A stretch of 64,000 bases of DNA, from NCBI GenBank assembly GCA_963711135.1, contig CAVQCZ010000005.1, positions 163,149 through 227,148 on the forward strand, in the 5' to 3' direction. Each line of letters starts with the position of its first letter. Position 1 is the first letter of the stretch. The translations under genes were made by a program, and so were the position numbers. Shown in pieces: positions 5,834 to 25,238 of this stretch. Origin of the DNA: an uncultured Actinomycetota bacterium. Lineage in GTDB: Bacteria > Actinomycetota > Actinomycetes > Frankiales > Frankiaceae. The notes below the pieces were generated by a model. It saw only the letters and a program-made list of their open reading frames with translations. It was not told the origin of the DNA and did no database searches.

Positions 5834-6016
5834 TCAGGTGTCTTCGTCCCGATCCCCGTCGAACCCGCAGCGGCACTCCGTCAAGGCCTCTGCGCACTCG
5901 TCACAGCGGTCGGCGCCGTCCGTGATGTCCTTGTCATCGGAGTCAAGGTTTTCCGTTTCGGGAAGGACTTCTTCCAGAAGTAGTGCGAGATCGACCGGAT
6001 CGGTGGGAGGGAACAT
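5834..6016 (-). CDS. 60-aa acidic Cys-motif protein, copy 1 of a repeated module
   Basis: The sequence MFPPTDPVDLALLLEEVLPETENLDSDDKDITDGADRCDECAEALTECRCG... is about 80% identical to the 60-aa ORF at 21548..21730. The CxxC...CxC motif is conserved between them. Confidence 0.5.
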   Translation of the reverse strand: MFPPTDPVDLALLLEEVLPETENLDSDDKDITDGADRCDECAEALTECRCGFDGDRDEDT

Positions 6017-6031
6017 CAGCCTTCTCCTTGG

Positions 6032-6217
6032 CTAGCGACGCTTGCCCAATCCGGGGAGCCCTCCGTTGACGAGCCGCGGCTGGGGCACCCGGAAGTCGGG
6101 GCAGATCTGCTTTCCCGTTACAGCTTCTTTCCGGCTGAACGTCCGGCGGTGTTCAGCCTGACGTCGGTACTCGAGTGGCGGCAGTCCGGCGGTCGTCTTC
6201 GCCCACGAAGTGCTCAT
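6032..6217 (-). pseudogene. Internally deleted and frameshifted copy of the zinc-ribbon gene 21747..22181
   Basis: Nucleotide alignment to 21747-22181 shows the same start (ATGAGCACT...) and the same 3' end (...PQPRLVNGGLPGLGKRR). Two internal blocks are missing: one of about 65 bp and one of about 180 bp. Most of the zinc-ligand cysteines are lost (CPDF here versus CPDC in the intact copy). Confidence 0.6.
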
Positions 6218-6433
6218 CGGCACCACGCGGTACGAGCCCGCGGGCAACGACTTGTACCGTCGGACTCGGAGCGTGCAAGCCACTGAGTTGACCGAGTCGG
6301 CATCGGTCGAAACTCGAGAGGGGCTCGTCTCCGGTCGTGCAGGAGACTGGCTGCTCAAAGGAGAACATGACGACGTTGGATCGTCGACGCCCAACACTTC
6401 CAGTCGGCATACCGAGACTCCGGCGACTGAGAG

Positions 6434-8893
6434 CTAAACAGGTTTGTCGCCGGATCGGCCGAAGGCGACGTTGGCGAGGCCTTTGACGTACCAGGTGCCG
6501 TTGCTGGGTCGGAAGACGGCGTAGTCGGTTTTGCCGTCGCCGTTGAAGTCGGCGGCGAGGGGGATGTCGCCGGATCGGCCGAAGGCGACGTTGGCGAGGC
6601 CTTTGACGTACCAGGTGCCGTTGCTGGGTCGGAAGACGGCGTAGTCGGTTTTGCCGTCGCCGTTGAAGTCGGCGGCGAGGGGGATGTCGCCGGATCGGCC
6701 GAAGGCGACGTTGGCGAGGCCTTTGACGTACCAGGTGCCGTTGCTGGGTCGGAAGACGGCGTAGTCGGTTTTGCCGTCGCCGTTGAAGTCGGCGGCGAGG
6801 GGGATGTCGCCGGATCGGCCGAAGGCGACGTTGGCGAGGCCTTTGACGTACCAGGTGCCGTTGCTGGGTCGGAAGACGGCGTAGTCGGTTTTGCCGTCGC
6901 CGTTGAAGTCGGCGGCGAGGGGGATGTCGCCGGATCGGCCGAAGGCGACGTTGGCGAGGCCTTTGACGTACCAGGTGCCGTTGCTGGGTCGGAAGACGGC
7001 GTAGTCGGTTTTGCCGTCGCCGTTGAAGTCGGCGGCAAGGGGGATGTCGCCCGACGTCCCGAAGGCCACGTTGGCAAGGCCTTTGGCATACCAGGTTCTG
7101 TTGCTGGGTCGGAAGACGGCGTAGTCGGTCTTGCCGTCGGCATTGAAGTCCCCGAACGGCCAGTCTGCCCGGCGAACGGTCTTGAGGGATGCGTCATTGA
7201 GCGTCACCGCCCCTGCGGTAGCGGCATGGGCATATCGCCGACCGCTATTGACCAGCCAGCCCGATTGTGACGGGGTACCGATCAGCTGCGTCCCGTTCAT
7301 CGGCGTGCGCAACAAGTGGGCCGCGGGGGTCGATGCGTTGTCGACATCCCACTGGTCGACCAGCACGGACGACTGCGGGCCTCCGAAGGGTGTCCAGTCG
7401 GTGACAGGGAAGGCGGTCCCGCCGGCGACCCGGTAGTACGCGCCGCTGATGGTCCGAAGGAACGTCCCGCTGGCGGGTAAGGATCGCAGGTGAGCGGCCG
7501 GATTGGCGGTGTTGTCGACGTCCCATTCGTCGACGGCCACACCTGGCTTGGGGCCACCGATTGCGGCCCAGTTGCTGAGGTAGAGGGGTGCGCCGCCGGC
7601 GACGATGAAAACGCCGCCACCGGAAGCATCGAGGATGGTGCCGTCGAGGGGCACGGGCCGCAGGTGGGCGGCCGGATTGGCGGTGTTGTCGACGTCCCAT
7701 TCATCGACGGCCACACCTGGCTTGGGGCCACCGATTGCGGCCCAGTTGCTGAGGTAGAGGGGTGCGCCGCCGGCGACGATGAAAACGCCGCCACCGGAAG
7801 CATCGAGGATGGTGCCGTCGAGGGGCACGGGCCGCAGGTGGGCGGCCGGATTGGCGGTGTTGTCGACGTCCCATTCGTCGACGGCCACACCTGGCTTGGG
7901 GCCACCGATTGCGGCCCAGTTGCTGAGGTAGAGGGGTGCGCCGCCGGCGACGATGAAAACGCCGCCACCGGAAGCATCGAGGATGGTGCCGTCGAGGGGC
8001 ACGGGCCGCAGGTGGGCGGCCGGATTGGCGGTGTTGTCGACGTCCCATTCATCGACGGCCACACCTGGCTTGGGGCCACCGATTGCGGCCCAGTTGCTGA
8101 GGTAGAGGGGTGCGCCGCCGGCGACGATGAAAACGCCGCCACCGGAAGCATCGAGGATGGTGCCGTCGGCGGGGACGGCGCGTAAGGCGTCAAACTGCGC
8201 CTGCGAGATCTGGGAGACCGGCTGATTGCCACCGACGGCCGCCCACGAGCTCACATACAGCGGGGCGCCTCCGGCGATTCGGTAAACAGCAGGCAATCCC
8301 GTCACGACGACAAAGGTGCCGTCAGCCAGCGCCCCGGAACCACCGCCGACGTCGTGAGGGTGCAGGAAAGCATCGACTGAACTGGCTGCTATCCAGCCGG
8401 CATCGGTGTAACCATTGGTGGTTGCCGAGGTGAAGTTGTCAGCCACGACATGGACTTGGCTGCCGCTCACCTGGTCGACGTAAGCAACATGCCCGAAGCC
8501 GGCGGCGACTTCGGAACCCCACCAGGCAATGGATCCCACCGCTGGGGTGTGGTTGCCGCCGCCGTTGTGACTGGCCCAAGTAACAGCGTTTCCCCAGTTA
8601 CCGGGATCCGCCATGCCGTTCTGCTGAAGACGCCAAGCGGCGTACAGGGTGCAGTTGTGATAACCGTTCGCCGTTTGCGCGTAGCTGGCGCCGTAGTGTG
8701 TCCAGGCCCACGTGCCGGCGGCGTTGGCGCCGGTGTAGCCGGGGGTGCAGGCATAGCCGTAGCTCAGGCAGTCGGTCTGGGATGCTGACGCCGGAGATGC
8801 AGCAACAAAAGTCAGCGTAATCAAGGCGGCCGCAATCGACCCCAAGAATGCTACGCATGACCGGACACTTTTCCGGCCGCCAAACATCTCCAC
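6434..8893 (-). CDS. Secreted CHAP-domain amidase with six copies of an uncharacterised 58-aa module and six FG-GAP-like 40-aa repeats
   Basis: A signal peptide is present (…LITLTFVAASPASA). The CHAP Cys and His contexts are NCTLYAAWRL and GHVAYVDQV. The middle holds repeated DGTILDASGGGVFIVAGGAPLYLSNWAAIGG... modules. The C-terminus holds DFNGDGKTDYAVFRPSNGTWY repeats. Confidence 0.85.
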   Translation of the reverse strand: MEMFGGRKSVRSCVAFLGSIAAALITLTFVAASPASASQTDCLSYGYACTPGYTGANAAGTWAWTHYGASYAQTANGYHNCTLYAAWRLQQNGMADPGNWGNAVTWASHNGGGNHTPAVGSIAWWGSEVAAGFGHVAYVDQVSGSQVHVVADNFTSATTNGYTDAGWIAASSVDAFLHPHDVGGGSGALADGTFVVVTGLPAVYRIAGGAPLYVSSWAAVGGNQPVSQISQAQFDALRAVPADGTILDASGGGVFIVAGGAPLYLSNWAAIGGPKPGVAVDEWDVDNTANPAAHLRPVPLDGTILDASGGGVFIVAGGAPLYLSNWAAIGGPKPGVAVDEWDVDNTANPAAHLRPVPLDGTILDASGGGVFIVAGGAPLYLSNWAAIGGPKPGVAVDEWDVDNTANPAAHLRPVPLDGTILDASGGGVFIVAGGAPLYLSNWAAIGGPKPGVAVDEWDVDNTANPAAHLRSLPASGTFLRTISGAYYRVAGGTAFPVTDWTPFGGPQSSVLVDQWDVDNASTPAAHLLRTPMNGTQLIGTPSQSGWLVNSGRRYAHAATAGAVTLNDASLKTVRRADWPFGDFNADGKTDYAVFRPSNRTWYAKGLANVAFGTSGDIPLAADFNGDGKTDYAVFRPSNGTWYVKGLANVAFGRSGDIPLAADFNGDGKTDYAVFRPSNGTWYVKGLANVAFGRSGDIPLAADFNGDGKTDYAVFRPSNGTWYVKGLANVAFGRSGDIPLAADFNGDGKTDYAVFRPSNGTWYVKGLANVAFGRSGDIPLAADFNGDGKTDYAVFRPSNGTWYVKGLANVAFGRSGDKPV
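6437..7150 (-). repeat. 120-bp coding tandem repeat, about 6 copies, the central copies identical at nucleotide level
   Basis: The sequence lines at 6481, 6601, 6721, 6841 and 6961 are identical. Each unit encodes DFNGDGKTDYAVFRPSNGTWYVKGLANVAFGRSGDIPLAA. Confidence 0.95.
7472..8167 (-). repeat. 174-bp coding tandem repeat, 4 near-identical copies
   Basis: The period is 174 bp; for example, the motif cggtgttgtcgacgtccca recurs at 7507, 7681, 7855 and 8029. Copies differ only by an alternating ttcgtc/ttcatc SNP. Each encodes a 58-aa module. Confidence 0.9.
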
Positions 8894-8995
8894 CCCCGAG
8901 TACTACTACTCGCAATCACGATACGCAGCAAAACGTTACGGCGCAGGCGAACGCGAAAGTCGGGGCGAGATTCCGGCGTGGCCGCCGAAATCGTC

Positions 8996-9158
8996 GGCGC
9001 AATCATGAGCCCGGCGCACGATAGAAGTAACGCCGTTATCGCCAGTTCGATCCGCCGCGTCTGCCTGTTCCTGAGGGATCACAAGCGGCCGTGCCGATGC
9101 CCAACGCAACGGCAGCGGTGAAGAGAGCGAGCATCCTTTTGACATTGCGGCGCCTCAT
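8996..9158 (-). pseudogene. Orphan signal-peptide remnants
   Basis: An ATG at 9158 opens a roughly 40-codon ORF, MRRRNVKRMLALFTAAVALGIGTAAC..., which carries a lipobox. In another frame, 8996-9045 encodes ...ITALLLSCAGLMIAPT. This is nearly identical in DNA to the signal-peptide region of the CHAP paralog at 29653-29700 (AITALLLSCAGLIIAPA). Confidence 0.35.
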
Positions 9159-9185
9159 CACTGCCCGAGATCCTTCTCGCGTACG

Positions 9186-10481
9186 TCAGCCAACGCGCAG
9201 TGAGTGATTGGGGTCTTGGACGAGACCTGTGATGTGCAGCCGGCGGGGGTGGTAGCCGCTACGGTTTTCGCCGAGCCAGTAGGAGGCGTAGGCGAGGTAC
9301 AGCCGCCCGGTGGGTCCGACGACCGGTGAGGCGCCGCCTGGTCCCTGGCTGACGTCGTTCACCTTGCTGGAAAGCAGGGGAGCGACTCCGCCGGCGGGAC
9401 GGGTGCAGGCCGCGCGGGGACCCTGGCGGCAGATCGCGTACCCGGTGGCGTAATTACTGCGGCCGTCGCTGTCATTCCAGGCGGAGTCGTTGGCGGAATA
9501 GAACAGGTAGGTGACGCCGCCGTAGTAGAGCATCGACGGGTTCTCGATCGTGCTGCCTTCCCAGGCCGCGGCGCGGTTGGTCTGCAGCAGCGTGACGACG
9601 GGCGCGCCGGGAAGCGGCAGGCCGTTGCTGCCCAACTGCACTGATTTGATTGATGATTCGACGCCGCCGACCCTCCCGGCTGCCTTCCAGAGCAGGTAGT
9701 CCTTCCCCGTTGTCGGGTCGTGGTAGGGATAGGGGTCGATCGAGCCGGACGGGTCGGAGGCGACTGGCTGGCACTGGATCGGACGGATGCCACTGATGTC
9801 GCGGAACGGCCCCATCGGGCTGGCCGCGCTCGCGACGGTGAGGCAGAAACGCCCGTAGCCGTGGGGATCTCTCGGGTCGCCCGCGGCGCTCGTCCTCACG
9901 GCGGAGTAGGCGTACCACGTGGTCGCTGACGGTGTGGTGATGCTGAACACCGATGCGGCCCAGTACGTCTCCTGCTGCCATTTGTTGCCCGCGACCGCGG
10001 TCTTCAAGCCCCAGGCGGCGGGACGTACCAGCGCGTCGTTGTTGAAGAACTCATTCCACGGGGTGTCCCCGTAGGCGAGCAACTCCGGTGGGACGCCGTT
10101 GGTCCAGTTCGGATCGTTCGGGCTGGAGGCGCTGCTCCAGTTCCGGTGGATGGTCCACGTCTTCAGGTCGGTGCTGGTGAGCACGCCCAGATACCTGCCT
10201 CCGGCGGAGGAGCTGTAGGCGTAATAGGTGTTGCCGATTCGCAGGATGTCCGGATCGCCGAAGTCGCCCTGCCAGGTCAGGCCGCCCTGGAACCAGCCAT
10301 GCGGAAGGGTTGCCGACGCGTTGTTGGCATCAAGCGTCGGCGCCACCGGGGTGCCCTTGGGCACGCACGCGGCGATGCCCGCGAAACCCACAAGTGCGAC
10401 CAGCGCCGGGACGGCCCTGCGCCAGCGCAGCCACCTTGACCTCATGCGGACCTCAATCAGCGTTGAACTGCGCTTCATCAC
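9186..10481 (-). CDS. GH43-like five-bladed beta-propeller glycoside hydrolase, lipoprotein
   Basis: A lipobox is present (GFAGIAAC). The sequence shows an N-terminal GDPDILRIGNTYYAY motif and a later EGSTIENPSMLYYGGVTYLFYSAN motif, both typical of GH43 as I remember the family. The true start may be the ATG at 10478 or the one at 10445. Confidence 0.6.
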   Translation of the reverse strand: MMKRSSTLIEVRMRSRWLRWRRAVPALVALVGFAGIAACVPKGTPVAPTLDANNASATLPHGWFQGGLTWQGDFGDPDILRIGNTYYAYSSSAGGRYLGVLTSTDLKTWTIHRNWSSASSPNDPNWTNGVPPELLAYGDTPWNEFFNNDALVRPAAWGLKTAVAGNKWQQETYWAASVFSITTPSATTWYAYSAVRTSAAGDPRDPHGYGRFCLTVASAASPMGPFRDISGIRPIQCQPVASDPSGSIDPYPYHDPTTGKDYLLWKAAGRVGGVESSIKSVQLGSNGLPLPGAPVVTLLQTNRAAAWEGSTIENPSMLYYGGVTYLFYSANDSAWNDSDGRSNYATGYAICRQGPRAACTRPAGGVAPLLSSKVNDVSQGPGGASPVVGPTGRLYLAYASYWLGENRSGYHPRRLHITGLVQDPNHSLRVG

Positions 10482-10721
10482 CGGGTGGCGTTTCGCGTGG
10501 GGCAGATCGTCCGGGCCCTCGTAGGACGTTAGGGCATGTTTGGCGGTCTGTTCGCGGATTTCGAATTTACGGCGGTTTAGGCGCAGGAGGTCCGGGCAAC
10601 TCTCGGCACGCGCGATTTCGAGCCGACCACGTCTCGCCGCTCATTATTTGTAGAGCGTGTAAATAGCTGGCGGTCGCGGGTGAATCGGGCTGCGGGATTG
10701 TCGCGGCCCGCAATGATCCCG

Positions 10722-11951
10722 TCAGCTGTGGGGAACGACGTAGAAGACCCAGCTGATTGCGCTCGATCCGCTGCCCAGGATGGCGTGCCAGCGACCTGCG
10801 GCGAGCGGGTTACGCGCGAAGACGAAAACTGCGTGATCGCCCTGCAGGATTTGCCGTCCGGTGGGTCCGTAGACCGGATCACTCGTCTGATAATTGACGC
10901 TGTCGATGACGCACAGCGTGTTGTTCGTCGACGAAAGGATCGACCTGCCGTTAAGGCTCATCAGCGCGGGGGGAACCGACGTCGGATTATCCGGAAGCAT
11001 GGCGATAACCGGGAGACCCCACCAGCCGCTGGCACCGCCGGGACAGGCTTCCCGGGGATCGGGCGATTCACCGCCGTACGAGTTCAGCCCGACGACCTCG
11101 TTGTTGCCGGGAAACACGATCGGAGTCCTGATGGTGCCGTCGCCGGTGAGCCCGGAGATCACATTCAGCCCGGCACCGCTCGAGCTGGCGGCGAACGCGG
11201 ATTGTTCAAGGCCGGGCCGAAGGATCCCGATCGCGTGGAACGGAGCGGTCATCCAAATCTCGACGATCGCCCGCTGGGCTCCGGGATTCAGGAAGCCCTC
11301 GACGAGATTCGACGCGCCGGCTTGCTCCGCCCCGGCCTGGGTGTAGTAGGGGCTGGCCGGGTTCTCGGTGTGCAGGCTTTGATACTGGCCGGTGAAATAG
11401 CTCGCAGGCGTGCGGCTCAAGTAGTTCAGATGCGCGTTGAGCCCCGCGGTCCAGCTGGTGTTTTCCGTGACTGGCGGGAGCCCGGAGCCGGCGCGGTAGT
11501 AGTTCAGCGTGGCAAGCCAGCTCGCTGCAGAGCTGAGCTGATCGGACGGCAGCACGCTGACGGCGCGGCAGCCGAGAAGTTGATTGGTTCCGGGCGTACG
11601 CACGAGGTTGTCGGCGGTAACGCACACGAGATGGCTTCCCGCCACGGCCGTAACGGCTTTGTCAAAACCATGATTCGGCCCGGCGGCGCCCTTGAGCGCT
11701 GCGACGTCCGGTCGGGGAAGGCTTGCCGTCACGACCGTTGGGTGGCCGTCGATGCTGATCGTGACCGGAATGGCGGCGTGGGCCGAATCCTGGTCCCAGG
11801 CCCAGCCGGTGACATGAATGGTTCCGCTGCCGGAACTCAATGAGAACGCTGCACTCAGCTGGTTGATGCCACCCTGCGGCTGGCAGGCGATCAAGCCCGC
11901 CGCCGCGACGGCCAACGCCGCGAAGCTCCCGATCAACCGACGGTTCCGCAT
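10722..11951 (-). CDS. Lipoprotein with a CAP/SCP-like domain
   Basis: The signal and lipobox are MRNRRLIGSFAALAVAAAGLIAC. The stretch LATLNYYRAGSGLPPVTENTSWTAGLNAHLNYL resembles the N-terminal motif of the CAP domain. The antisense 387-aa ORF is Arg/Gly-rich and I rejected it. Confidence 0.5.
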   Translation of the reverse strand: MRNRRLIGSFAALAVAAAGLIACQPQGGINQLSAAFSLSSGSGTIHVTGWAWDQDSAHAAIPVTISIDGHPTVVTASLPRPDVAALKGAAGPNHGFDKAVTAVAGSHLVCVTADNLVRTPGTNQLLGCRAVSVLPSDQLSSAASWLATLNYYRAGSGLPPVTENTSWTAGLNAHLNYLSRTPASYFTGQYQSLHTENPASPYYTQAGAEQAGASNLVEGFLNPGAQRAIVEIWMTAPFHAIGILRPGLEQSAFAASSSGAGLNVISGLTGDGTIRTPIVFPGNNEVVGLNSYGGESPDPREACPGGASGWWGLPVIAMLPDNPTSVPPALMSLNGRSILSSTNNTLCVIDSVNYQTSDPVYGPTGRQILQGDHAVFVFARNPLAAGRWHAILGSGSSAISWVFYVVPHS

Positions 11952-12180
11952 GTGCTCCTCGTCTCGAATGACATCGTGTGGCGCGGCCGCGGCGGCTTAG
12001 CCGATACGCAGCGACCAGCACTTCATGCGGACCCAAATCAACGTTAAAGCACCGCTGCCGGCGCGTCCGCTGAACGCCCGTATTTTCCTGGCACAGCCGC
12101 TCCTTAGCACAGCCGCTAACCGTTGAACCGAATTTCAGTAAAGCGGCGCGCCTATCTTCAGCGCCTGTCAGCATTCTTGC

Positions 12181-14862
12181 GTGCGCTTCAAGAGAACACG
12201 CCAGCTCATCGCCGTCAGCGCAATGTTCGGTGCTGCTTTGGGAGCCTTGAGCGCCTGCGGGACGCCGACCGTGCCTTTGCCGACCGGGCAGCCGGGAGCG
12301 GCTTTGATTTCGACAGGCCCCGGATCGCGGCAGGTCTTCTGGCGCGACCGGGCATCGCATCAGGTCTACTACCGAACCTTTTCTTCCGGCGGATGGTCTG
12401 CCCCGGTTTCACTCGGCAGCAACGTGATCCAGGGGGTCGGTGCCGCGGTCGACTCGGCCGGGGTAGTGACCATTGCGACGGTCGGGACGAACAAGGCCGT
12501 CATCGTGCGTACGCGGCAGCCAGGTGGCAGCTTCTCGCCGTGGCAAAACCTCGGCGGCGCGGCCTACAGCCAGCCGGCCGTGGTCGCCCCTGCGCCACAG
12601 GTGGTGCGCGTGCTGATGACCGGAGCCAACGGCATCCCGTACATGCGGACCGAAGACCATGGGCGCTGGGGAGCGTGGGTGAAGCTGCCAGGCGCCCTCA
12701 GTGAAGCGCCCGCCGCGGCAAGGCTTGCGAGCGGAGCACTCATCCTCGAAGGGATCGGAACCGACAAGGGCCTTTACGAGCTGGCGATCTCCGCCGGCGG
12801 AATTCCCGTCGGCAGCTGGGCCAAGCAGGGAGGCCGTTGGGCGAGCACACCGGCCGTTACCGTCGATCCGGCCACCGGCGATCGAACCGTAGCGGTGCGC
12901 AACGTGTTCGGAGTCCCCGAAACAAGGACGTTTCTCAACGCCCGTCAGGTGTGGACCGCCTGGAGCGCCGTCGGCTCGACGGCTGTCGTTTCGGGTCTGA
13001 CCATGACTCGTTCCGGATCAACGACTGTCATCGCAGCGTTCGACCGGGCGGGTTCCTTGGACGAGACGACTACCGACGATGTCGAGGCTGCGACGCCCGC
13101 GTGGTCGGGGCTGCGACCGATCAGCACGCTCATCGTTCCTCCAACGACGAAGGCCGTTTCTCCAGCCGCGGTCAGCGCGGTCGTCAACGCGCCTGGCGGG
13201 ACTCAGACGGTGACGCTGGCGAGCTCAGCACCGGCAGTGGCGCCCGGTGACATCATCGCCTCCGACATCGGCGCCAACACACCCGATGGGCTGCTGGCCA
13301 AGGTCACCGGCGTGACGACCGATCCGGCTACCGGGGCGAGCACGGTGACGACCACGCCGGCGACTTTGCCGGAAGCCGTGGCCAACGGCAGCTTTGATGT
13401 GTCCGCCAGCCAAACGAGCGGCCAGCTGCAGCCGGCGATCGCAGCACCGAACACCACTCCACACCTCAGCCTGGCTCCGCGCGCCACGAATGGCAGCGTC
13501 GTTCAAGCCATCAGCAAGAACGTGTCCTGCTCGGGAAGCGCGTCAGCGAGTATCACCGGGTCGATCAGCGTCGTGCCCAGCTTTCATCTGTCTGGATCGT
13601 GGAGCCTGTTCGGCGGGGTGACTGCCGCGAGCTTCACGGGGACGGTCACCGAAGACGCCGATTTGAAGGCGGCTCTCACCGGGGCGGGCAGCTGCAACCT
13701 GGCAGCAACTCCGCTGCTGCCGAAGCCCATCAAGTTCAGCCCCATCACGTTCACCGTCGGGCCGATCCCCGTGGTCGTCGAGCCCGAACTGCAGTTCTAT
13801 CTCGACGGCAAGGGGAGTATCAGCGCGTCCGTCACTACGGAAGCCCGCCAGCGGCTGACCGCGACCGCCGGGCTCAACTGGACCAAGTCCGGCGGGCTTC
13901 ATCCGGTCAGCGGGCTCACGAACACGCAATCGTTCACGCCTCCGACGGCGACCGCCAACGCCGGCGTGGAGGTGGGAGTGGCGCCGAAACTCTCGTTGCT
14001 CCTCTACGGGCTCGCCGGGCCTGAGATCGATACTCGTGGCTATCTGAAATTCTCCGCTGACACGTCTCAAAGACCATGGTGGACGCTCAAGGCAGGGCTT
14101 TCCGCGGGTGCATCCCTGGTCATCCCAGCACTCAAAGTGAGCTTCGGAAATCCCCGCATCATCGGTTTTGAGAAGACCCTGGCGCAAGCCACCACCACGC
14201 CGCCCGGCGGCGGCACCCCGGCCCTTACCGTCACCCCCGCGTCCGGCCCGTACGGCATTGAACCGACCGTGACTTCGGCCAAAGCCTGTCCGGTGGCGAG
14301 CGGCGGAAGCGCGGTCATCAGCATCACCCAGAACTTCGCGCCGCCGACAAGCAGTTCCACCTACTCCAACTCCGTGCCACTCGCGGCGAACGGCTCCTGG
14401 AGCTATGTCGACGGAATCGGTATTTGGGGCATCACCCCCGGAGACATCCCGGTCACTTCCGTGAACTATGCGGTGACCTGCCGGGACGCCGGCGGGCATA
14501 CCACTCAGCAGTATCAGCCAGCCACGGTCCAGCTGAGCGCAGGGCTCACCTTGACGGGCGGGCTCAGCCAGACCCTCGGCAATGGCAGCCACGTCGTCAC
14601 CATTCGGCCCAACGCCGGCTGCCCGATCGCGGCGACCTCCGTCCAGATCACCGCCACGTACTTGGATTTCAGCGCCGCCCAGCAGAGCGAACCAAGCGTG
14701 AGCGTGACAGTTCCAGCGAACGGATCGCAGCTATGGGGCCCGGCCAACGTGACGCTTCCCGCCTCGCCGACGGGCTCGAACTACGTGGCGGCTTATGCCG
14801 AGTGTGACCAAGCCGGGGCCACCCCGAGATTCTTCTATACCGCGGTGAACTTCCTCATCTGA
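12181..14862 (+). CDS. Large lipoprotein with N-terminal Trp-rich propeller/lectin-like repeats
   Basis: A lipobox is present (GALSAC). The N-terminal roughly 270 aa contain repeated GGWS.P..LG / G.WG.W..LPG motifs, which resemble DUF346/PLL-type repeats. I do not recognise the remainder. Confidence 0.6.
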   Translation: MRFKRTRQLIAVSAMFGAALGALSACGTPTVPLPTGQPGAALISTGPGSRQVFWRDRASHQVYYRTFSSGGWSAPVSLGSNVIQGVGAAVDSAGVVTIATVGTNKAVIVRTRQPGGSFSPWQNLGGAAYSQPAVVAPAPQVVRVLMTGANGIPYMRTEDHGRWGAWVKLPGALSEAPAAARLASGALILEGIGTDKGLYELAISAGGIPVGSWAKQGGRWASTPAVTVDPATGDRTVAVRNVFGVPETRTFLNARQVWTAWSAVGSTAVVSGLTMTRSGSTTVIAAFDRAGSLDETTTDDVEAATPAWSGLRPISTLIVPPTTKAVSPAAVSAVVNAPGGTQTVTLASSAPAVAPGDIIASDIGANTPDGLLAKVTGVTTDPATGASTVTTTPATLPEAVANGSFDVSASQTSGQLQPAIAAPNTTPHLSLAPRATNGSVVQAISKNVSCSGSASASITGSISVVPSFHLSGSWSLFGGVTAASFTGTVTEDADLKAALTGAGSCNLAATPLLPKPIKFSPITFTVGPIPVVVEPELQFYLDGKGSISASVTTEARQRLTATAGLNWTKSGGLHPVSGLTNTQSFTPPTATANAGVEVGVAPKLSLLLYGLAGPEIDTRGYLKFSADTSQRPWWTLKAGLSAGASLVIPALKVSFGNPRIIGFEKTLAQATTTPPGGGTPALTVTPASGPYGIEPTVTSAKACPVASGGSAVISITQNFAPPTSSSTYSNSVPLAANGSWSYVDGIGIWGITPGDIPVTSVNYAVTCRDAGGHTTQQYQPATVQLSAGLTLTGGLSQTLGNGSHVVTIRPNAGCPIAATSVQITATYLDFSAAQQSEPSVSVTVPANGSQLWGPANVTLPASPTGSNYVAAYAECDQAGATPRFFYTAVNFLI

Positions 14863-16990: not shown

Positions 16991-17449
16991 GCGGCTCGGG
17001 GCACTCGTTTCCGCGCACGAGCGCAACCCCACCGTGACCGACATAGGTTCATTTGTTCGCGCTCGGCAAGGAATGTGCAACGGACGCAGGGGAACTCGCC
17101 CACCCTTGGGCTGTCGGTGCGGCGCGCCGTAGCAGGCTGCGCTCAGCAAGAAGGGGCTGCGCCGAGTGTCTCACCGCCCGGCGCCGGCCCCTTCCGCTGC
17201 GGGACAGTTTCACGGGCGTCGTACTCGCCTCCACTGCCCAACGCGGACAGTGTCGGCACGCCCGGGTCCACGACACCACCGGCTCCACACCATCGGTCAT
17301 GCGCTGGCAGCATCTCCTCAGACCGTGAGGGTTGGGGTCGCCGCAGACCGCGCGGGCTTTGGCGGCGGCACCACTTGTGCAGCCAGCTGTGCCTGCCGGA
17401 TCCCGTCTGTCCGACTCCTGTAGTACAGTGTGTAACACAGGAGGTCGTG

Positions 17450-17869: not shown

Positions 17870-17872
17870 GCT

Positions 17873-18322: not shown

Positions 18323-18480
18323 AGCTGCGGTAAGCCGCCTGCTGCACGACCCTCGTCGGCCGGCAACGACTGCTCTGCGGCATGTGCAACGTCACCCCCC
18401 ACGTGTTGCCGTAGTGGAGTGGGCGGGGATAGCGGCCTCCGGCGGGGGCTGACGTCGCGTGCTTGCGTGATCCGGGTCAC

Positions 18481-18495
18481 TAATGTATAGCATTA
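18481..18495. promoter_or_regulatory. AT-rich inverted repeat TAATG-TATAG-CATTA upstream of the solute-binding protein gene
   Basis: It lies about 45 nt upstream of the ATG at 18540 and is unusually AT-rich for this genome. A small GCTTC-GGTTA-GAAGC hairpin follows it. Confidence 0.25.
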
Positions 18496-18539
18496 ATAGC
18501 TTCGGTTAGAAGCTGCTTCTGCTTCGGTCAGGAGACCGC

Positions 18540-19958
18540 ATGTCGCGTCGCTCAATGCAGCCGGTTCACTCGCGCAGTCGTCGACCGGTCCGCACGGTGA
18601 CGCTTCCGGCGCTGGTCGTTGCCGTCACGGTGGCGATGTTCGGTTGCGGGCGATCGGGGAGCACGCCGACGGCGGGTACTTCTTCAAGCAAGCCCGCGCC
18701 CGCGAGCAGCGCGACCACCTCGGCGGCGCCTGGTGATTTCGGCACTCTGAAAGGGGTCTGTGGCCCCGGCAATGCGAGCGGGGCGACTGCCCGTGGGGTG
18801 ACAGACACGACGATCCGGATCGGTGTGACGGCAGATCCCGGCTCCGCGGCGGCTCCGGGATTGGAGCAGGAATTCTTCGATACCGCTGAGGGTTTTTCGA
18901 AGTGGTGCAATGCCGCAGGCGGGATCGACGGGCGCAAGATCGTCGTCGACAAGCTGGACGCGAAGCTCTTCAACGTCGGCCAGGTGACGACGAAAGCCTG
19001 CCAGAGCGACTTCTTTCTGGTGGGGAACGGCAACGCGTTCGACAGCGCCGGTGTGAAGATCCGCGAGGCTTGCAAGCTCGGGCAGATCCCCGCCTACGTG
19101 GTCTCCCCGCAGGCGGTGAACGCCAGCTACCAGATCCAGCCGGCGCCCATCCCGTCCGACGAGATCAACGACGGCGCCATGCGGCTGCTGACTGCGGCCT
19201 TCCCTGACACGAAAACCGGTGGGATCGCCATAGCCAGCAGCACTTTGAGCTCGATCATCCCGACCGGCCTCAAGGCGCAGGAGTACCTCAAGGATCTCGG
19301 GATCAAGGTGGCGGTGCTGCAGAACCAGCCGGTGCAGATCGACAACTTCCGGCCCTACATCGAGCAGCTGAAAACCGCTGGTGCTAAAGGGCTTTACCAG
19401 ATCACGTCGCAGGATCCGAACCCCGTCGTGCAGGCCATGCGCAACGTCGGATACAACCTCGACTGGATCCTTTTCAGCACCCAGTTCTACGGACCGCAGG
19501 CGGTGGCGGGCGCGAAGTCGCTCGGCACGTTCCCGCCCAGCTACGTCCAGTTCCAAGCGCTGCCGTTCGATCTGGACAGCAAGTACCCGGTGCTCAAGCA
19601 GACCGAATCGATCGTCAAAGCTGCGGTGTCGAACCCGAAGCTGACCTCCTTCACCCTGTCGTCGTTCAATGCCTGGCTGCTGTTCGCCGAATCCGCAAAG
19701 GCCTGCGGGTCGAACCTGACCGTGGACTGCGTCTTGCAGAAGGCCGGGTCATACTCGGACTGGACTGGCGGCGGCCTTTACCCGAAGCAGGATCTGCGGC
19801 CGGGCCAGCAGCATGCTTCGCCCTGCATCGCGCTGGTGAAGCTGACCACCAGCGGCTTCGTCTACGACCAGCAGGCCACTGACCCGACCTCCGGCGACTT
19901 CCCGTACAACTGCGATCCGCTGAACGTGAAGAAGGTGAAGACCTACCTGACCAGCTGA
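18540..19958 (+). CDS. Type-1 periplasmic-binding-fold (Leu/Ile/Val-binding-like) solute-binding lipoprotein, orphan
   Basis: A lipobox is present (AMFGC). The stretch GVTDTTIRIGVTADPGSAAAPGLEQEFFDTAEGFSKWCNAAGGIDGRKIVVDKLDAKL is typical of this family. No ABC permease or ATPase gene is adjacent. It is paralogous to the ectodomain of the kinase at 34040..36613. Confidence 0.75.
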   Translation: MSRRSMQPVHSRSRRPVRTVTLPALVVAVTVAMFGCGRSGSTPTAGTSSSKPAPASSATTSAAPGDFGTLKGVCGPGNASGATARGVTDTTIRIGVTADPGSAAAPGLEQEFFDTAEGFSKWCNAAGGIDGRKIVVDKLDAKLFNVGQVTTKACQSDFFLVGNGNAFDSAGVKIREACKLGQIPAYVVSPQAVNASYQIQPAPIPSDEINDGAMRLLTAAFPDTKTGGIAIASSTLSSIIPTGLKAQEYLKDLGIKVAVLQNQPVQIDNFRPYIEQLKTAGAKGLYQITSQDPNPVVQAMRNVGYNLDWILFSTQFYGPQAVAGAKSLGTFPPSYVQFQALPFDLDSKYPVLKQTESIVKAAVSNPKLTSFTLSSFNAWLLFAESAKACGSNLTVDCVLQKAGSYSDWTGGGLYPKQDLRPGQQHASPCIALVKLTTSGFVYDQQATDPTSGDFPYNCDPLNVKKVKTYLTS

Positions 19959-20606
19959 GCCGCTGAACGTGCGGTGTCGGCTGCACCGCGCCGCTTTGAG
20001 CTCCGTCTCTTGGGCGAGGGCGCCGCGGACGTCGGGGCGGTGAGCATGGCGGCGGCCATATCGACGAGATTCGCGGTGAACGCATCGGCGTCCAGAGTGA
20101 GCGGCTCTCCGTCCTCGATGGCTCGTGCCCGCTCGGCGATCAGCGTCGTCGCGGCGCGCAGCATGCTCGATCAGCCTCTCGTCGCGCAGCGTTTCGGGCA
20201 GCCCACGCCGATCAAGATCCTGCCGAGCCAGATCGAATGCCTTGACGACGGCGGGCGGCTCGACTTCGCCGATCAGGTGTTGGGGCAGGATGCGCAGGTA
20301 GTCACGGCCGTCGGCGAGAAGGAGATGATCGGCCATCGGCCCGAGGATCACCGCGACGACGGCGTGCAGCGAGGCATTCGCCTTCAGCTTCGCGAGGCGC
20401 CTCGCCCGGTCGGCGTCGATGACCGCGGAGTGCCGCTCGAAGATGGCTCGCAGCAGACCTTCGCGACTACCGAAGTGATAGTGCAGCGCCGAGGCATTGC
20501 GCTGCCCGGCCAGCTCATTCAGCTCGCGCAGCCGGGTCTGCTGGATCCCTTCACGGGCGAAGAGGTGCTCCCCGGCGCGGATGAGAGCGGCTTTGGCGTC
20601 GGCCAT
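19943..20606 (-). pseudogene. TetR-family regulator interrupted by one frameshift (or an assembly indel)
   Basis: The N-terminal HTH part (MADAKAALIRAGEHLFAREGIQQTRLRELNELAGQRNASALHYHFGSREGLL...) runs in the frame of ORF 19749..20642 as far as ...RDERLIEH. The natural continuation (MLRAATTLIAERARAIEDGEPLTLDADAFTANLVDMAAAML...) lies in the frame of ORF 19943..20164. The switch is near 20160-20166. Confidence 0.65.
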
Positions 20607-20655
20607 GGAAGCGATCGTAGTGACTCGATTAATCGAATGCATTAGAGTTCGGGAC

Positions 20656-21528
20656 GTGACGACTTCACTGGCGCCTGAGGCGCATACGGCAAGTCAGCTC
20701 AGCGTGCGGCGGATCGCCGGGGCGCTCGGTGCCGAGATCCGCGGCGTTCGCCTGGCAGACCTGGACGATGCCGGCTTCGAGCAGGTGCGCAAGGAGCTCA
20801 TCGCGCACAAGGTGATCTTCCTGCCCGAGCAGTTCCTCACGCCTGACGCGCACCGCGCCTTCGCGGCGCGGCTCGGCGAGATCGAGATCCATCCGTACTT
20901 GCCGAAGCTGGATGACGAGCACCAGGAAATCGTCCTGCTGCGCAGCGGCAGCGGGTACATCGCCGACGTCTGGCACACCGACGTCACGTTCGCCGCGTCA
21001 CCCCCGAAGTTCTCGGTGCTCAACATGCTCGAGCCGGCCCCGTACGGCGGCGACACCATGTGGACCAATCAAGCGCTTGTCTACGCCAGCCTTTCGACCC
21101 CGATGAAGGAGCTGCTGCTCGGCTTGACGGCGCTGCACAGCGCCCGCAAGTTCGGCGATCCCGAGACGAAGGCCGAGCACCCGGTCGTGCGGCTCCATCC
21201 CGAAACGGGGGAGCCGTCGCTCTTCGTGAACCGCCAGTTCACCGAGCGCATCGTGGAGCTCAGCAAGGGCGAGAGCGACAGCCTGCTGGCATACCTCTAC
21301 AGCTTCAGCGAGCAGCCGCAATTCACCTGCCGCTACAGCTGGACAGCCGGCGCGATCGGCATCTGGGACAACCGCGTCACCCAGCACTACGTCGTCAACG
21401 ACTTCGAGGGCGAGCGCACGATCAGCCGCGCCACCGTCATAGGCGATGACCCCGAGCCGGCCGGCGACATCTCACGCTGGAGCCCGCATGTCATCGGGCG
21501 CACTTCCGCGGCGGCGCACGAAAGCTGA
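20656..21528 (+). CDS. TauD/TfdA-family Fe(II)/2-oxoglutarate dioxygenase
   Basis: The WHTDVTF (HxD) motif is present, along with ...GIWDNRVTQHY.... The gene is divergent from the TetR gene. I start it at the GTG at 20656, because the track ORF upstream of that point overlaps TetR and is Arg/Ser-rich. Confidence 0.85.
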   Translation: MTTSLAPEAHTASQLSVRRIAGALGAEIRGVRLADLDDAGFEQVRKELIAHKVIFLPEQFLTPDAHRAFAARLGEIEIHPYLPKLDDEHQEIVLLRSGSGYIADVWHTDVTFAASPPKFSVLNMLEPAPYGGDTMWTNQALVYASLSTPMKELLLGLTALHSARKFGDPETKAEHPVVRLHPETGEPSLFVNRQFTERIVELSKGESDSLLAYLYSFSEQPQFTCRYSWTAGAIGIWDNRVTQHYVVNDFEGERTISRATVIGDDPEPAGDISRWSPHVIGRTSAAAHES

Positions 21529-21547
21529 GCCGCACCCTTTTGCCGGC

Positions 21548-21730
21548 TCAGATGCCTTCGTCCCGATTCTCTGCGGACCCGCAGCGGCATTCCGTCAAGG
21601 CCTCTGCGCACTCGTCACAGCGGTCGACGCCGTCCGCGATGTCGTTGTCATCGGAATCAAGGTTTTGCGTCTCGGGAACGACTTCTTCCAGAAGTAGTGC
21701 GAGATCGACCGGATCGATGGGAGGGAACAT
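21548..21730 (-). CDS. 60-aa acidic Cys-motif protein, copy 2 (intact module)
   Basis: The sequence is MFPPIDPVDLALLLEEVVPETQNLDSDDNDIADGVDRCDECAEALTECRCG.... It lies 16 nt downstream of the zinc-ribbon gene. Confidence 0.55.
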   Translation of the reverse strand: MFPPIDPVDLALLLEEVVPETQNLDSDDNDIADGVDRCDECAEALTECRCGSAENRDEGI

Positions 21731-21746
21731 CTGCCCTTCTCCTTGG

Positions 21747-22181
21747 CTAGCGGCGCTTGCCCAATCCGGGTAGCCCTCCGTTGACGAGCCGCGGCTGGGG
21801 CACCCGGCAGTCGGGGCAGACCTGCTTTCCCGGCACAGCTTCTTTCCGGTTGAACGCCCGGCCGCACCGGTGGCAGGTCACCCTCGCCCAGCGTTTGTGG
21901 CAGGCCGGGCACCGGGGCGTGCCGGATTCGGTGTTCAGCCTGACGTTGGCACTCGACTGGTGGCAGTCGGCGCACTCGTCGGCGATGGTTCGAAGCGCGC
22001 GCAGGGCGTGCAGGCGCCGCATCCTCGCTCGGGTTCGAGGATTGGGCAGCTGGTCGATCAGCTGCGCAGCTTCAGCGAGCTTGAGCCGAGCGGACCCGGA
22101 GCTGGCATCTGCGATGTCTTTTTCCGCGGCGATGAGTAGACCAAGGATCCGGCGGTCGTCTTCGCGCACGACAGTGCTCAT
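21747..22181 (-). CDS. 144-aa double zinc-ribbon protein (four CxxC pairs), unknown family
   Basis: The cysteine pattern is ...CADCHQ...CPACHKRWARVTCHRCGRAF...CPDCRVPQPRLVNGGLPGLGKRR. This is the intact reference copy for the remnants at 6032..6217 and 25026..25173. Confidence 0.6.
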   Translation of the reverse strand: MSTVVREDDRRILGLLIAAEKDIADASSGSARLKLAEAAQLIDQLPNPRTRARMRRLHALRALRTIADECADCHQSSANVRLNTESGTPRCPACHKRWARVTCHRCGRAFNRKEAVPGKQVCPDCRVPQPRLVNGGLPGLGKRR

Positions 22182-22244
22182 CGGCTACCCGTTGGGGCGG
22201 GTTGAATTCGGCGGTCTCTGGGTTGACGGTGCTTATGGGCGCTG
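22095..22244. repeat. Left copy of a roughly 150-bp direct repeat (5' end plus upstream region of the zinc-ribbon gene)
   Basis: It aligns by eye to 25026-25173 at about 93% identity (ggagctggc..gcgatgtc.ttttccgcggcgatgagtagaccaaggatccggcggtcgtcttcgcgcac...gggttgaattcggcggtctctgggttgacggtgc). Confidence 0.85.
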
Positions 22245-22541
22245 GGGCGCGTCGTGTCGCCGTGAGCAATCCCAGTTGATGGCCACCCTCCGAGGAGGAA
22301 CTCCGCCGTTGGTGCGCTGGATATCACGCCGCTTGCTGCCACGTCTCGTCCTTGGGCGACCGGTGTGATGTGAAATGCGTGGCAAACGTTTGGAAACGTG
22401 GCTGGGAGCAAGAAATGGTCGGCTTCATACCCGGAAAAGTCGTGAAACTCGAACGTCGGAGCCGGGCGTGCGAGAGACTTCCTCGAGTCGAGGCCGGCGC
22501 AGAGGCTGGTCACCAAGGAGGAGGAGATTCCGCTGAAGCGC

Positions 22542-24962
22542 TTGCGTGCAAGGATCCGGGTAGCGCTCTCGCTTTTCGCAGGACTGACCCTTCTCGGTTC
22601 GCTCGCGGCCGTCGCGCCCGCGGCCGCGGCCGGTTCGTCGCCTTTCAAGATTTTGGTACTGGGTGATTCTTACTCCGCGGGCAATGGCGCTGGCGCCTAC
22701 TATGGTCCCGCCGGATGCTGGAGATCACACCGGGATTATGCCGAAGACCTGGCAAATATGGCGCGTAAGGCGCCGCACAATATGACTGTTGACGTCAAGA
22801 ATGTCGCCTGCAGTGGTGCAGTGACTGCTGATATCTTCAATAAAGAGAGTGGGCGTCCGGCAGAGTTAAACGCGGTGGACAAGTCCTACAACCTGATCCT
22901 GCTGACCATCGGCGGTAACGACGCCTACTTCGCGGATATAGTGCGGTACTGCCTGATCGCCACGACTCGAGACGGTGCCAATTGCAACCAAAATTTGGCG
23001 CGGGCGGAGTCACTGATCAACTCGGGGACTATCCAGCAACGGGTAACCAAGGTCTTGAAGGCGGTCTTGCAGCACGCCAGCCCTAGCGCCAACGTCGTGC
23101 TCTTGGGGTATCCGATCCTGGAAGGCGACACTTCCTACACCCTCCGATCTGGGCATGGAGGGCCCATCATTCAGGTCGGGCGACGCCTTCATGCGATCAG
23201 CTTGGCGGGTGAAAAGTCGCAGAGCGCCGCGGTGCAAGCCGCAAATGGGTCCTCGGGACACCGGGCGCGCTTCATCAGCGTTCAAGCGCTCTTCAACGGC
23301 CCTCCGTACCACGGCCTGTACGCCAAGAAGAACAACCCACACCGCTGGATGGTCCAGCCATGGATTGACGCGACATTCGCGAGCAAGGAAACCTTTTACC
23401 ATCCAAATCCCACAGGATGGAGCAAAGAAGCAACCTTGCTGTGGAGCGACGGCGTCATCTCCGGAAACGGTCCGTCGCCGCCGATCATCACGACCACCGC
23501 TCTGCCGGCGGCGGCGCAGGATCAGCCGTACACCACCGAGTTGACTACGTCTGACCACCGCGCCGGCAGCTGGAAGGTCACCACCGGAAGCCTGCCTCCT
23601 GGCCTGTCTTTGACCGGGTTCACGATCTCCGGTATCCCGACGACGCCAGGAAACTTCCCGATCACGCTGCAATTCACTGACACCGCCAAGCAGACCGCCT
23701 CTGTGGTTACCGCGATCAGTGTCGTCGGCACCTCCCCGGCGCCTGCCGGCGACGTCTATGCATGGGGCACCAATCCTTGTGGAGGCCTCGGGGATGGCAC
23801 GGCAACGAACTCCTTCACGCCGGAGAACGTCGCGAACCTCAACGGGATGAAGGAGATCTCCGTCGCTTACACGGACTTCCGCAGTGGCACCACCTGGGAG
23901 GTCTACGGGCTCAGAAGCGACGGAACGGTTTGGGGTTGGGGAACCTGCGGCGTAAAGGTCGATTCTCTCAGCCCAGTGCAGATCCCCGGGCTTGAGCACA
24001 TCGCCGATCTCCAGGTCAGTGCTGGACCCACGAATTATGCGCTCGCGTCAGACGGAACCGTGTGGGCTTGGGGCTTCAATGACGGAGGTGGCTTCGGCAA
24101 TGGCGCGCCGCTCGACGCTCAAGCGACCACAGCCTTCCAGATTCCCGGCCTGGCGCATGTCACTCAGCTGCTGGGCCTTGGAGAGGGCGGCTATGCCGTC
24201 GAATCCGACGGATCCGTATGGGGATGGGGGACTGTCGACGTGGGTGCCCCCGCGGATCCGGGCACGGGGGCGCTCCCTATCCAGAGCACTCCTATCCGGG
24301 TATCCGGGCTGTCCGGGGTGAGAAGCCTTTCTCTATACGACCAGGGTGCCAACTACGCGCTCAAGACCGACGGCACGCTCTGGGCCTGGGGCGACAACAC
24401 TTGGGGCGAGTTGGGTACCGGCAGCTCGAATACCAGCGACTCGGCGCCGATCTCCAATCCGGTGCAAGTCACGGGGCTCCACGACGTAGTCGCTGTCAAA
24501 CACGGAATCCAGGAGAACTACGCCTTTGAAAGCGATGGGAGTCTCTGGGTCTGGGGAACGATCCGTCAGGCCGGAGACGACGGAATAGCGGCTCCCTTGC
24601 TCTACCAGCCCACCAGAGTCCCGTCTGTTCCCGCAGTCGCGGCCTTCGACAAATATCCCCTGCAGGCCCAGGTCGTCCTCACGCGTAGCGGGCAGGTTTG
24701 GGAGCTCGGGACCGCGTTTGGTCAAGTGACCGGGCTGCCCAGCGTAACGTCCGTGACCTGCTGGAACGGTTGCTATGCGGTCGCGCAAGACGGATCCGTC
24801 TGGGCATGGGGATTGAACTACAGCTCCTGGTACCCACTCACCACGCAGCTGCCAGCGGACACGTACGACAGCCCGACCAAACTGGACGCCTTGTCCAACG
24901 TCGTGGACGTCTTTTCCGAAGGCAGGAACGTCTATGTCGTCACTGGCTCACCTACGGGGTAG
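22542..24962 (+). CDS. Secreted SGNH/GDSL hydrolase, He_PIG Ig domain and RCC1-repeat propeller protein
   Basis: A signal peptide is present. The GDSL block is FKILVLGDSYSAGNG. An Ig-like segment (LPPGLSLTGFTISGIPTTPG) follows. About seven RCC1-like repeats are visible (VYAWGTNPCGGLGDG, VWAWGFNDGGGFGNG, LWAWGDNTWGELGTG, and others). Confidence 0.85.
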   Translation: MRARIRVALSLFAGLTLLGSLAAVAPAAAAGSSPFKILVLGDSYSAGNGAGAYYGPAGCWRSHRDYAEDLANMARKAPHNMTVDVKNVACSGAVTADIFNKESGRPAELNAVDKSYNLILLTIGGNDAYFADIVRYCLIATTRDGANCNQNLARAESLINSGTIQQRVTKVLKAVLQHASPSANVVLLGYPILEGDTSYTLRSGHGGPIIQVGRRLHAISLAGEKSQSAAVQAANGSSGHRARFISVQALFNGPPYHGLYAKKNNPHRWMVQPWIDATFASKETFYHPNPTGWSKEATLLWSDGVISGNGPSPPIITTTALPAAAQDQPYTTELTTSDHRAGSWKVTTGSLPPGLSLTGFTISGIPTTPGNFPITLQFTDTAKQTASVVTAISVVGTSPAPAGDVYAWGTNPCGGLGDGTATNSFTPENVANLNGMKEISVAYTDFRSGTTWEVYGLRSDGTVWGWGTCGVKVDSLSPVQIPGLEHIADLQVSAGPTNYALASDGTVWAWGFNDGGGFGNGAPLDAQATTAFQIPGLAHVTQLLGLGEGGYAVESDGSVWGWGTVDVGAPADPGTGALPIQSTPIRVSGLSGVRSLSLYDQGANYALKTDGTLWAWGDNTWGELGTGSSNTSDSAPISNPVQVTGLHDVVAVKHGIQENYAFESDGSLWVWGTIRQAGDDGIAAPLLYQPTRVPSVPAVAAFDKYPLQAQVVLTRSGQVWELGTAFGQVTGLPSVTSVTCWNGCYAVAQDGSVWAWGLNYSSWYPLTTQLPADTYDSPTKLDALSNVVDVFSEGRNVYVVTGSPTG

Positions 24963-25025
24963 GCAAGGGCAAAGCGTTTTCGGCGACCGCCGGTGACTTG
25001 CGCACCCAAGCCGCCCGCGCCGGCG

Positions 25026-25173
25026 CCCGGAGCTGGCGGCTGCGATGTCCTTTTCCGCGGCGATGAGTAGACCAAGGATCCGGCGGTCGTCTTCGCGCAC
25101 AAAGTGCTCATCGGCGACCCGTTGCGGCGGGTTGAATTCGGCGGTCTCTGGGTTGACGGTGCATATGGCGCTC
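25026..25173 (-). pseudogene. Right copy of the direct repeat: a truncated, frameshifted 5' remnant of a third zinc-ribbon gene copy
   Basis: It encodes ..VREDDRRILGLLIAAEKDIAAASSG.. (copy 2 reads MSTVVREDDRRILGLLIAAEKDIADASSG). A 1-nt deletion sits just after the ATG. Homology ends after about 25 codons. Confidence 0.7.
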
Positions 25174-25238
25174 AACAGCGCGCGCCCGTGTGCCGACATT
25201 GTCGGTTATGCCGGTGATCAAGCGCGGGACCTATTCCA

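Follow-up and report, generated by a model that had tools for sequence, protein, structure and literature searches.

A small two-gene cassette, present as one whole copy and two wrecked copies, lies in a region rich in defence genes within the DNA analysed here, a stretch of 64,000 nucleotides (the window; positions 163,149 to 227,148 of contig CAVQCZ010000005.1, assembly GCA_963711135.1) from an uncultured bacterium of the Frankiaceae. The first gene encodes a basic protein with predicted zinc ribbons, which we call ZR, and the second an acidic protein with a putative zinc-knuckle, which we call AC. We are confident that the cassette is a strain-specific operon of a defence or accessory island, that it was tripled within 20 kb by illegitimate recombination, and that two copies are pseudogenes and the third is possibly frameshifted. 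On the same reading ZR and AC do not share a history: the family of ZR is very rare and patchy, and AC is a diverged paralogue of a genus-specific gene from a defence hot spot, where it lies near another small protein, X.

The cassette and its three copies

The features of the three copies, given as open reading frames (ORFs) or parts of them, are the following.

5834..6016, minus strand: AC of copy 1 (AC1), ORF intact
6032..6221, minus strand: ZR remnant of copy 1, with two internal deletions
21548..21730, minus strand: AC of copy 2 (AC2), 60 residues, from the ORF listing
21731..21746, minus strand: spacer of 16 nt between ZR and AC, carrying the AAGGAG ribosome-binding site of AC
21747..22181, minus strand: ZR as assembled in copy 2, 144 residues, from the ORF listing
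22095..22238, minus strand: partner of copy 3 within copy 2, left arm of a 2.9-kb direct-repeat bracket
22170..22172, minus strand: single extra G in copy 2 (...GAGCACT[G]TCGTG...), a base that copies 1 and 3 and a metagenome contig do not have
22182..22269, minus strand: probable true N-terminal coding extension of ZR, start TTG 22269, in frame only without the extra base
25026..25168, minus strand: copy 3, limited to 145 bp from the 5' end of ZR (coding for the N-terminus, in the ancestral frame)

The pairwise identity among the three copies is 92-95% and the flanks are unique to each of them. Because the copies have diverged and their flanks differ, they are not assembly duplicates, a possibility that the original prediction had raised against itself. 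In a search of the whole genome (6.05 Mb in 9 contigs, 68-69% GC) with both DNA and tblastn, no copy was found beyond these three places. The module was likewise absent from every other collection searched, and a metagenome scan returned one false positive only, the antisense strand of an integrase. The three copies first noticed in the letters are therefore borne out by the alignments, and so is the picture of a local duplication of which two copies have eroded.

In copy 2, ZR and AC appear to be arranged as an operon, being small adjacent genes on a common strand, with the ORF of AC beginning 16 nt past the stop codon of ZR and after the ribosome-binding site. Both ORFs are as originally described, namely a 144-residue protein with four CxxC pairs that ends in NGGLPGLGKRR and an acidic protein of 60 residues. 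The spacer and the AAGGAG ahead of the ATG of AC are present in copies 1 and 2, with an indel of 1 nt in the spacer of copy 1. ORFs also cover AC on the plus strand (21446-21697 and 5759-5983); these are probably not genes, since their start codons fall beyond the repeat and are not the same in the copies.

Copy 1 matches copy 2 over 5832-6147 (equivalent to 21546-21862) with an identity of 91-94%. AC1 differs from AC2 at 12 of the 60 residues, in agreement with the roughly 80% identity estimated before. The ZR gene of copy 1 retains about 37 nt of its 5' end (6185-6221) and 44 nt of its middle (6147-6191), which implies internal deletions of about 175 bp and 66 bp; seven of the eight zinc ligands are gone and a single cysteine survives in frame. 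The earlier description of two internal deletions and the loss of most cysteines thus holds. The C-terminal 37 residues of ZR, including the tail discussed below, are retained and are still reached by an ORF. This ORF (window 6032-6397, minus strand) runs from upstream across scrambled sequence into these last 37 residues, and a tail-bearing product of 61-121 residues could in principle be made from the broken copy.

Copy 3 (25026-25168) is 95-96% identical to 22095-22238 in copy 2. Together these stretches form direct repeats of 145 bp around a gene for a secreted SGNH/He_PIG/RCC1 protein of 806 residues. Such a bracket (22095-25168) fits an insertion of the 806-residue gene via recombination within the 5' region of ZR, and it is plausible that the direct repeats of copies 2 and 3 mark a recombination joint around it.

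In the three-way alignment, copies 1 and 3 read GAGCACT-T(C/T)GTG and copy 2 reads GAGCACTGTCGTG. A soil-metagenome contig of 151 nt, from the sole public run containing part of the window, is identical to 22078-22229 save for one base left out at 22170. As copies 1 and 3 and this contig all do without the base, it is copy 2 as assembled that carries an extra one, which would be either an assembly indel or a frameshift allele. The original prediction had been right about the repeat and the difference of 1 nt, but had read the latter as a deletion in copy 3. When the extra base is removed, the ORF of ZR becomes continuous with a frame upstream of it, which starts at TTG 22269, and reaches about 172 residues, compared with 172-190 residues for most of its closest relatives; the restored protein also regains an aromatic residue that is frequent among the relatives two positions before helix 1. 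Since the frame is restored to a longer ORF, the 145-bp repeat of copies 2 and 3 is N-terminal coding sequence and not just promoter, so that copy 3 is indeed the 5' end of ZR, as proposed, but more than the promoter-proximal piece it was taken for. The protein of 144 residues that starts at ATG 22181 would, according to its model, still hold the entire folded part. Judged from the base at 22170, further ORFs of the window may contain indel errors.

The window has a GC content of 0.62-0.68, which is under the genome mean. Beyond TauD (20497-21528) it has no counterpart in two genomes of the same genus compared in detail, and DNA searches of 12 genomes of the genus returned scattered genes only, mostly of paralogous families; the region is accessory, as had been claimed. 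The copies of the cassette sit between genes for large secreted repeat proteins. Copy 1 is flanked by a CHAP/FG-GAP protein and a He_PIG/NHL-type protein, and copies 2 and 3 bracket the SGNH/RCC1 gene. A gene with a Panacea domain (26207-26746) lies 1 kb from copy 3.

The ZR and AC families

ZR is strongly basic (isoelectric point 10.5, net charge +14), and its CxxC pairs are C70/73, C91/94, C103/106 and C122/125. An AlphaFold2 model built on the family alignment, with a predicted local distance difference test score (pLDDT) of 79, shows a three-helix bundle (residues 7-66), two C4 zinc ribbons (68-126) and a tail (134-144) that is modelled as disordered, with a pLDDT below 50. A Foldseek search of the PDB with this model gave generic three-helix bundles only (MIT domain, bS20), with E-values of at least 0.24, and a sequence search of the PDB gave nothing meaningful. 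In its four CxxC pairs and two ribbons ZR resembles the double zinc ribbons, but it falls under the Pfam cut-off for each of them and is not significant at the family level: the best match is TerY_C (PF15616; E 1.2e-4, 22.7 vs. 28.4 bits), and DZR_2 (PF18912) and DZR (PF12773) score 13 vs. 27 bits and 11 vs. 27.3 bits, respectively. PHROGs and PADLOC yielded nothing useful for ZR. Neither ZR nor AC proved to be a member of a well-known housekeeping family; such a membership would have spoken against the original prediction.

A word-seeded search of 5.8 billion proteins matched ZR to itself alone. With 1.84 billion representatives as the target, a full HMMER search brought up 11 relatives, 150-265 residues long (E 2e-18 to 4e-4), whose alignment extends to the very C-terminus. 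The residues C103, C106, C122, C125, G136, P138, L140, G141 and R144 (ZR numbering) are invariant, and ZR shares all the hallmarks of the family, that is, a helical N-domain, one or more C4 ribbons and a C-terminal ...GGLP(T/G)LG(K/R)RR. No member was present in 400 other genomes sampled across the phylum or in 60 relatives, and only two full-length members (from a Micromonospora and a Kribbella) were found among 185,579 species genomes. In a protein atlas only unnamed clusters were matched, with scores below 0.9. A direct origin from a phage or plasmid, which had been suggested, did not find backing either, as searches of 50,697 phage records, 72,556 plasmids and IMG/VR all came back empty for ZR. 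Judging from these searches and the model, the ZR family is a very rare and patchy group of small basic proteins with a predicted three-helix bundle, one or two C4 ribbons and a disordered tail.

A gene of the ZR family and a Panacea (PanA-like) pair are neighbours, at a distance of about 1 kb or less, in two independent loci: in the window (25026-27032), where the orientation is divergent, and in a metagenome contig (4217-5782), where it is convergent. The Panacea proteins of the two loci are 29% identical and their partner genes are unrelated.

AC2 has 60 residues, a net charge of -15 and a four-cysteine zinc-knuckle with DRCDECAEALTECRCG. Its AlphaFold2 model (59 residues, without Met1) is of low confidence, with a pLDDT of 56 and one short helix at residues 6-13, which would fit a peptide that folds on a partner. 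The word-seeded protein search found no relative of AC. Six-frame genome searches, on the other hand, located relatives in five of 12 genomes of the same genus (TBLASTN identity 38-48%; E 2.3e-6 to 7.4e-4) and, as a third locus besides AC1 and AC2, at C8:310867-311031 of the window's own genome. Outside the genus, the family was not detected in any of 43 genomes of other genera of the same taxonomic family at E <= 0.01, and 300 other genomes of the class contributed one borderline match only. Members of the AC family have 50-60 residues, in which an N-terminal helix (P..P.DLAL(L/V)VEE(V/I)(I/L)P(E/D)) is followed by an acidic linker and by a CxxC...CxxC knuckle; ten columns are invariant over the eight aligned sequences (alignment A6). 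The AC of the window is 31-36% identical to the other members in this alignment and belongs to the family by these features, with CxC as the last pair in the window's copies.

All six AC-family loci have protein X nearby, a protein of 130-190 residues with a TSRQLL motif that is 50-55% identical across the genus (alignment A5); in one genome X and the AC-like gene overlap stop to start. The window's own genome has one copy of X, outside the window. The surroundings include a Type IV methyl-directed restriction enzyme (PADLOC E 2.5e-254), a NERD-UvrD helicase, an SNase and the Wadjet genes JetC and JetD (JetD E 5.8e-117). Both in the window's own genome (C8:309414-311031) and in the five genomes of the same genus, variable defence genes stand between or beside X and the AC-like gene. 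The locus looks like a defence hot spot framed by two uncharacterised small genes, and AC is a paralogue of the acidic zinc-knuckle gene restricted to this genus, whose usual place is beside defence genes in the vicinity of X. The AC of the window has the same DLAL helix, acidic linker and four-cysteine knuckle as that gene, but the cassette lacks X and has ZR in the upstream place of X. A homology of ZR with X was considered and rejected (hhalign probability 0.3%).

None of eight ZR-family loci examined has an AC-like ORF downstream, and none of the six AC-family loci, with X nearby instead, has ZR. Since the relatives of ZR and AC thus reside at separate loci, the cassette has been assembled in this lineage from two unrelated sources.

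The C-terminal tail

A search with the most conserved stretch of the ZR family retrieved many proteins that share only their last 16 residues or so with ZR. This tail (SVRTVSGGLPTLGKRR) has the consensus S-V-R-T-V-S-G-G-L-P-T-L-G-K/R-R-R, of about 16 residues, and the stop codon follows after 0-1 more residue. Almost unchanged, it stands at the extreme C-terminus of 31 distinct sequences with differing N-terminal parts, which represent at least 10 apparently unrelated small architectures from Actinomycetota and Alpha- and Betaproteobacteria. Its hosts belong to Micromonospora, Kribbella, Streptomyces, Nocardia, Asanoa, Actinosynnema and Blastococcus; further hosts are Deefgea chitinilytica and one metagenome-assembled genome each of the Acidimicrobiaceae, Rhodobacteraceae and Rhizobiaceae. 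Among the bodies that carry the tail are zinc ribbons of other types, double as well as single, and proteins made of helices only; further bodies are a Lys-rich protein of 103 residues and a protein of 226 residues from Deefgea; one has the phage zinc finger Phage_zn_bind_8 (PF24623; 25.4 bits at a cut-off of 24). In the window's genome, a hidden Markov model of the tail run on all six-frame ORFs finds only the two ZR copies.

What is being conserved, the peptide or the DNA? At 19 loci for which DNA was available, G8, L9, P10, L12, G13 and R16 are invariant, each is encoded by 4-6 synonymous codons, and the conservation of the DNA ends at the stop codon. Invariant residues with free codons indicate selection on the tail peptide and not on the DNA. 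The same synonymous variation, with nothing conserved after the stop, rules out a DNA element such as an att site or the end of an insertion sequence (IS). An encapsulin cargo peptide was ruled out as well: the Linocin_M18 (PF04454) shell gene is present once in the window's own genome, but it is lacking in four of four other tail-bearing genomes (family 2 encapsulins were outside this search). Mimicry of the GroES mobile loop was discarded on the score of the genome's own GroES, which reaches -4.6 bits against the tail model.

Pfam and PHROGs scans of the tail-bearing proteins gave no match to the tail, nor did PADLOC, which was run on ZR only. Among PDB chains nothing was found at E <= 10, and the motif was not found in a literature collection of 8.4 million papers. 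Nothing described in the libraries and papers searched matches the ZR family, the AC family or the tail.

The genes for tail-bearing proteins adjoin transposases of the IS110, DDE_5, ISL3 and IS21 types; a tyrosine integrase, an NB-ARC-TPR protein, a Type ISP restriction enzyme and AAA_15/PDDEXK genes are further neighbours. In general, the ZR, AC and tail-bearing families belong, by their gene neighbourhoods, to the gene pool of the mobilome and of defence islands. Two Streptomyces loci illustrate such settings. In a prophage region of Streptomyces sp. (9377-10579), a resolvase-domain gene of 206 residues is followed after 4 nt by a helical tail-bearing protein of 192 residues and then by a Ku gene; the pair of resolvase and tail-bearing genes sits after the tail-fibre and tape-measure genes, where the integration module is expected. 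In Streptomyces sp. NBC_01356 (10.23-10.25 Mb of a 10.29-Mb chromosome), the gene for a tail-bearing protein of 126 residues has a ResIII/Helicase_C/HA helicase as its neighbour, with about 50 kb left to the end of the chromosome, and the N-terminal body of this protein is common to two other Streptomyces proteins.

Portable C-terminal docking tails exist in bacteria, as in the C-terminal tip of SSB and the ClpX-binding tail of SspB. The tail of the ZR type resembles these in being short, disordered and at the extreme C-terminus, in outlasting the rest of the protein and in standing on varied bodies. It differs from them in that it matches no described motif and that its carriers are rare mobilome proteins and not core proteins. 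The sequence pattern is that expected of a short linear docking motif. We therefore put forward, tentatively and with the balance of probability somewhat against us, that the tail is an undescribed portable docking motif. Through it, small proteins that are otherwise unrelated, most of them helical or with zinc ribbons, and that belong to mobile elements and defence islands would all plug into one highly conserved host machine. ZR would be one such adaptor, checked in this strain by an acidic zinc-knuckle protein recruited from a defence hot spot.

Possible function and competing explanations

How could the two proteins of the cassette act together? In a model that we regard as possible but not yet probable, ZR would bind nucleic acid through its basic zinc ribbons, and its tail would be the portable peptide by which it docks onto a conserved machine of the host. 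AC, very acidic and largely disordered, would bind and mask the basic ZR as a regulator, an anti-regulator or a neutralising partner. We count in favour of this scheme the complementarity of the charges (+14 for ZR vs. -15 for AC), the operon-like spacing of the two genes, the predicted fold of ZR, the conservation of the tail at the peptide level and the settings in which AC-family and tail-bearing genes occur.

Several observations weigh against this interpretation of the cassette and its tail. AC1 and AC2 differ with a ratio of nonsynonymous to synonymous rates (dN/dS) of about 1.0 (16 substitutions), and the substitutions do not significantly avoid the columns conserved in the family (p = 0.31), so that present-day constraint on AC within the cassette is unproven; for the AC family itself, conservation across the genus is clear. 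The assembled copy 2 departs from the ancestral frame by a frameshift, and the zinc-ribbon matches of ZR in Pfam are all below the curated cut-offs. ZR and AC are co-conserved nowhere else, and consequently their interaction is argued from adjacency and charge only. Finally, in an all-against-all BLAST of the neighbours no gene that could be the partner of the tail recurs beside the tail-bearing genes.

Some of these points would also suit a cassette that is non-functional debris. In that case a single past insertion would have left all three copies as relics, the frameshift would have broken copy 2 as well, and the ORFs would still be open only on account of their youth and high GC content. 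The additional base of copy 2 relative to the two other copies and the metagenome contig, the dN/dS of about 1, the absence of the module from all other collections searched and a weak, ambiguous coding potential (0.035 bits per codon for ZR; AC scores equally on the antisense frame) are in line with it. However, the frame-restored allele exists in nature, in the soil-metagenome contig, and even the start at ATG 22181 is predicted to yield a protein with the whole folded part. Moreover, both AC ORFs and their ribosome-binding sites are intact, copy 2 retains its eight zinc ligands and its tail, and the two families are clearly under selection elsewhere; we consider debris somewhat unlikely. 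That the copies are merely collapsed or duplicated assembly errors can practically be dismissed: indel errors in the assembly are possible, but large deletions and a divergence of 5-9% set the copies apart, their flanking genes are unique to each, and an independent contig reproduces copy 2 exactly save for the one indel.

Two further explanations assign the cassette to known kinds of system. ZR could regulate transcription for a mobile element, as a small zinc-finger factor of the P2 Ogr/Delta or DksA/TraR kind, with a tail that contacts RNA polymerase and with AC as an anti-activator. ZR has the build of the small C4 zinc-finger regulators (DksA/TraR PF01258, Ogr/Delta, PF24623), being small and basic, with helices and ribbons and in mobilome contexts; relatives occur in a prophage and beside IS elements and integrases, and one tail-bearing protein exceeds the cut-off for Phage_zn_bind_8. 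ZR itself, in contrast, stays below all the cut-offs, including those of zf-dskA_traR (E 0.044, 14.2 vs. 24.9 bits, below the gathering threshold) and of the DksA-like phrog_54 (E 0.036). Its model is a three-helix bundle and not the two-helix coiled coil of the DksA type, no solved structure was matched by this bundle in combination with tandem ribbons, nothing but generic bundles came out of the fold search, and the phage, plasmid and IMG/VR collections contain no match. Such a factor is unlikely in our view. A classical type II toxin-antitoxin pair, with ZR as the toxin and AC as the acidic antitoxin, is rated a little lower still. Like such modules, among them the PanA/Panacea pairs, ZR and AC are small, adjacent and co-oriented, one basic and one acidic, and the cassette occurs in several decaying copies in an accessory region rich in toxin-antitoxin and defence genes, with a Panacea domain in the window and another Panacea pair beside a ZR relative. 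In copy 1 the putative toxin is destroyed and the ORF of the putative antitoxin is kept. Unlike such modules, ZR and AC are not co-conserved (none of eight and none of six loci, as above) and ZR relatives occur alone; neither protein matches a toxin or antitoxin domain of Pfam or PADLOC above the cut-off, AC is devoid of a DNA-binding domain and ZR of a recognisable enzymatic domain. A co-evolved pair of the toxin-antitoxin type, as the original prediction had suggested, is thus not supported by the comparison of loci.

We return to the reading of a locally tripled operon assembled from two sources, with a putative docking tail on ZR. The duplicated and decaying cassette by itself represents ordinary genome dynamics and is of modest interest, and the tail is the part most worth following up. 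It is by shared tails of this kind that adaptors and hijackers reach the core machinery of the cell, for example proteases, clamps, SSB and polymerases, and the partner of this tail, once identified, would open a way into a group of mobilome proteins now without annotation. Likewise, the AC family and X mark a variable defence hot spot of the genus and may help to find new defence genes there.

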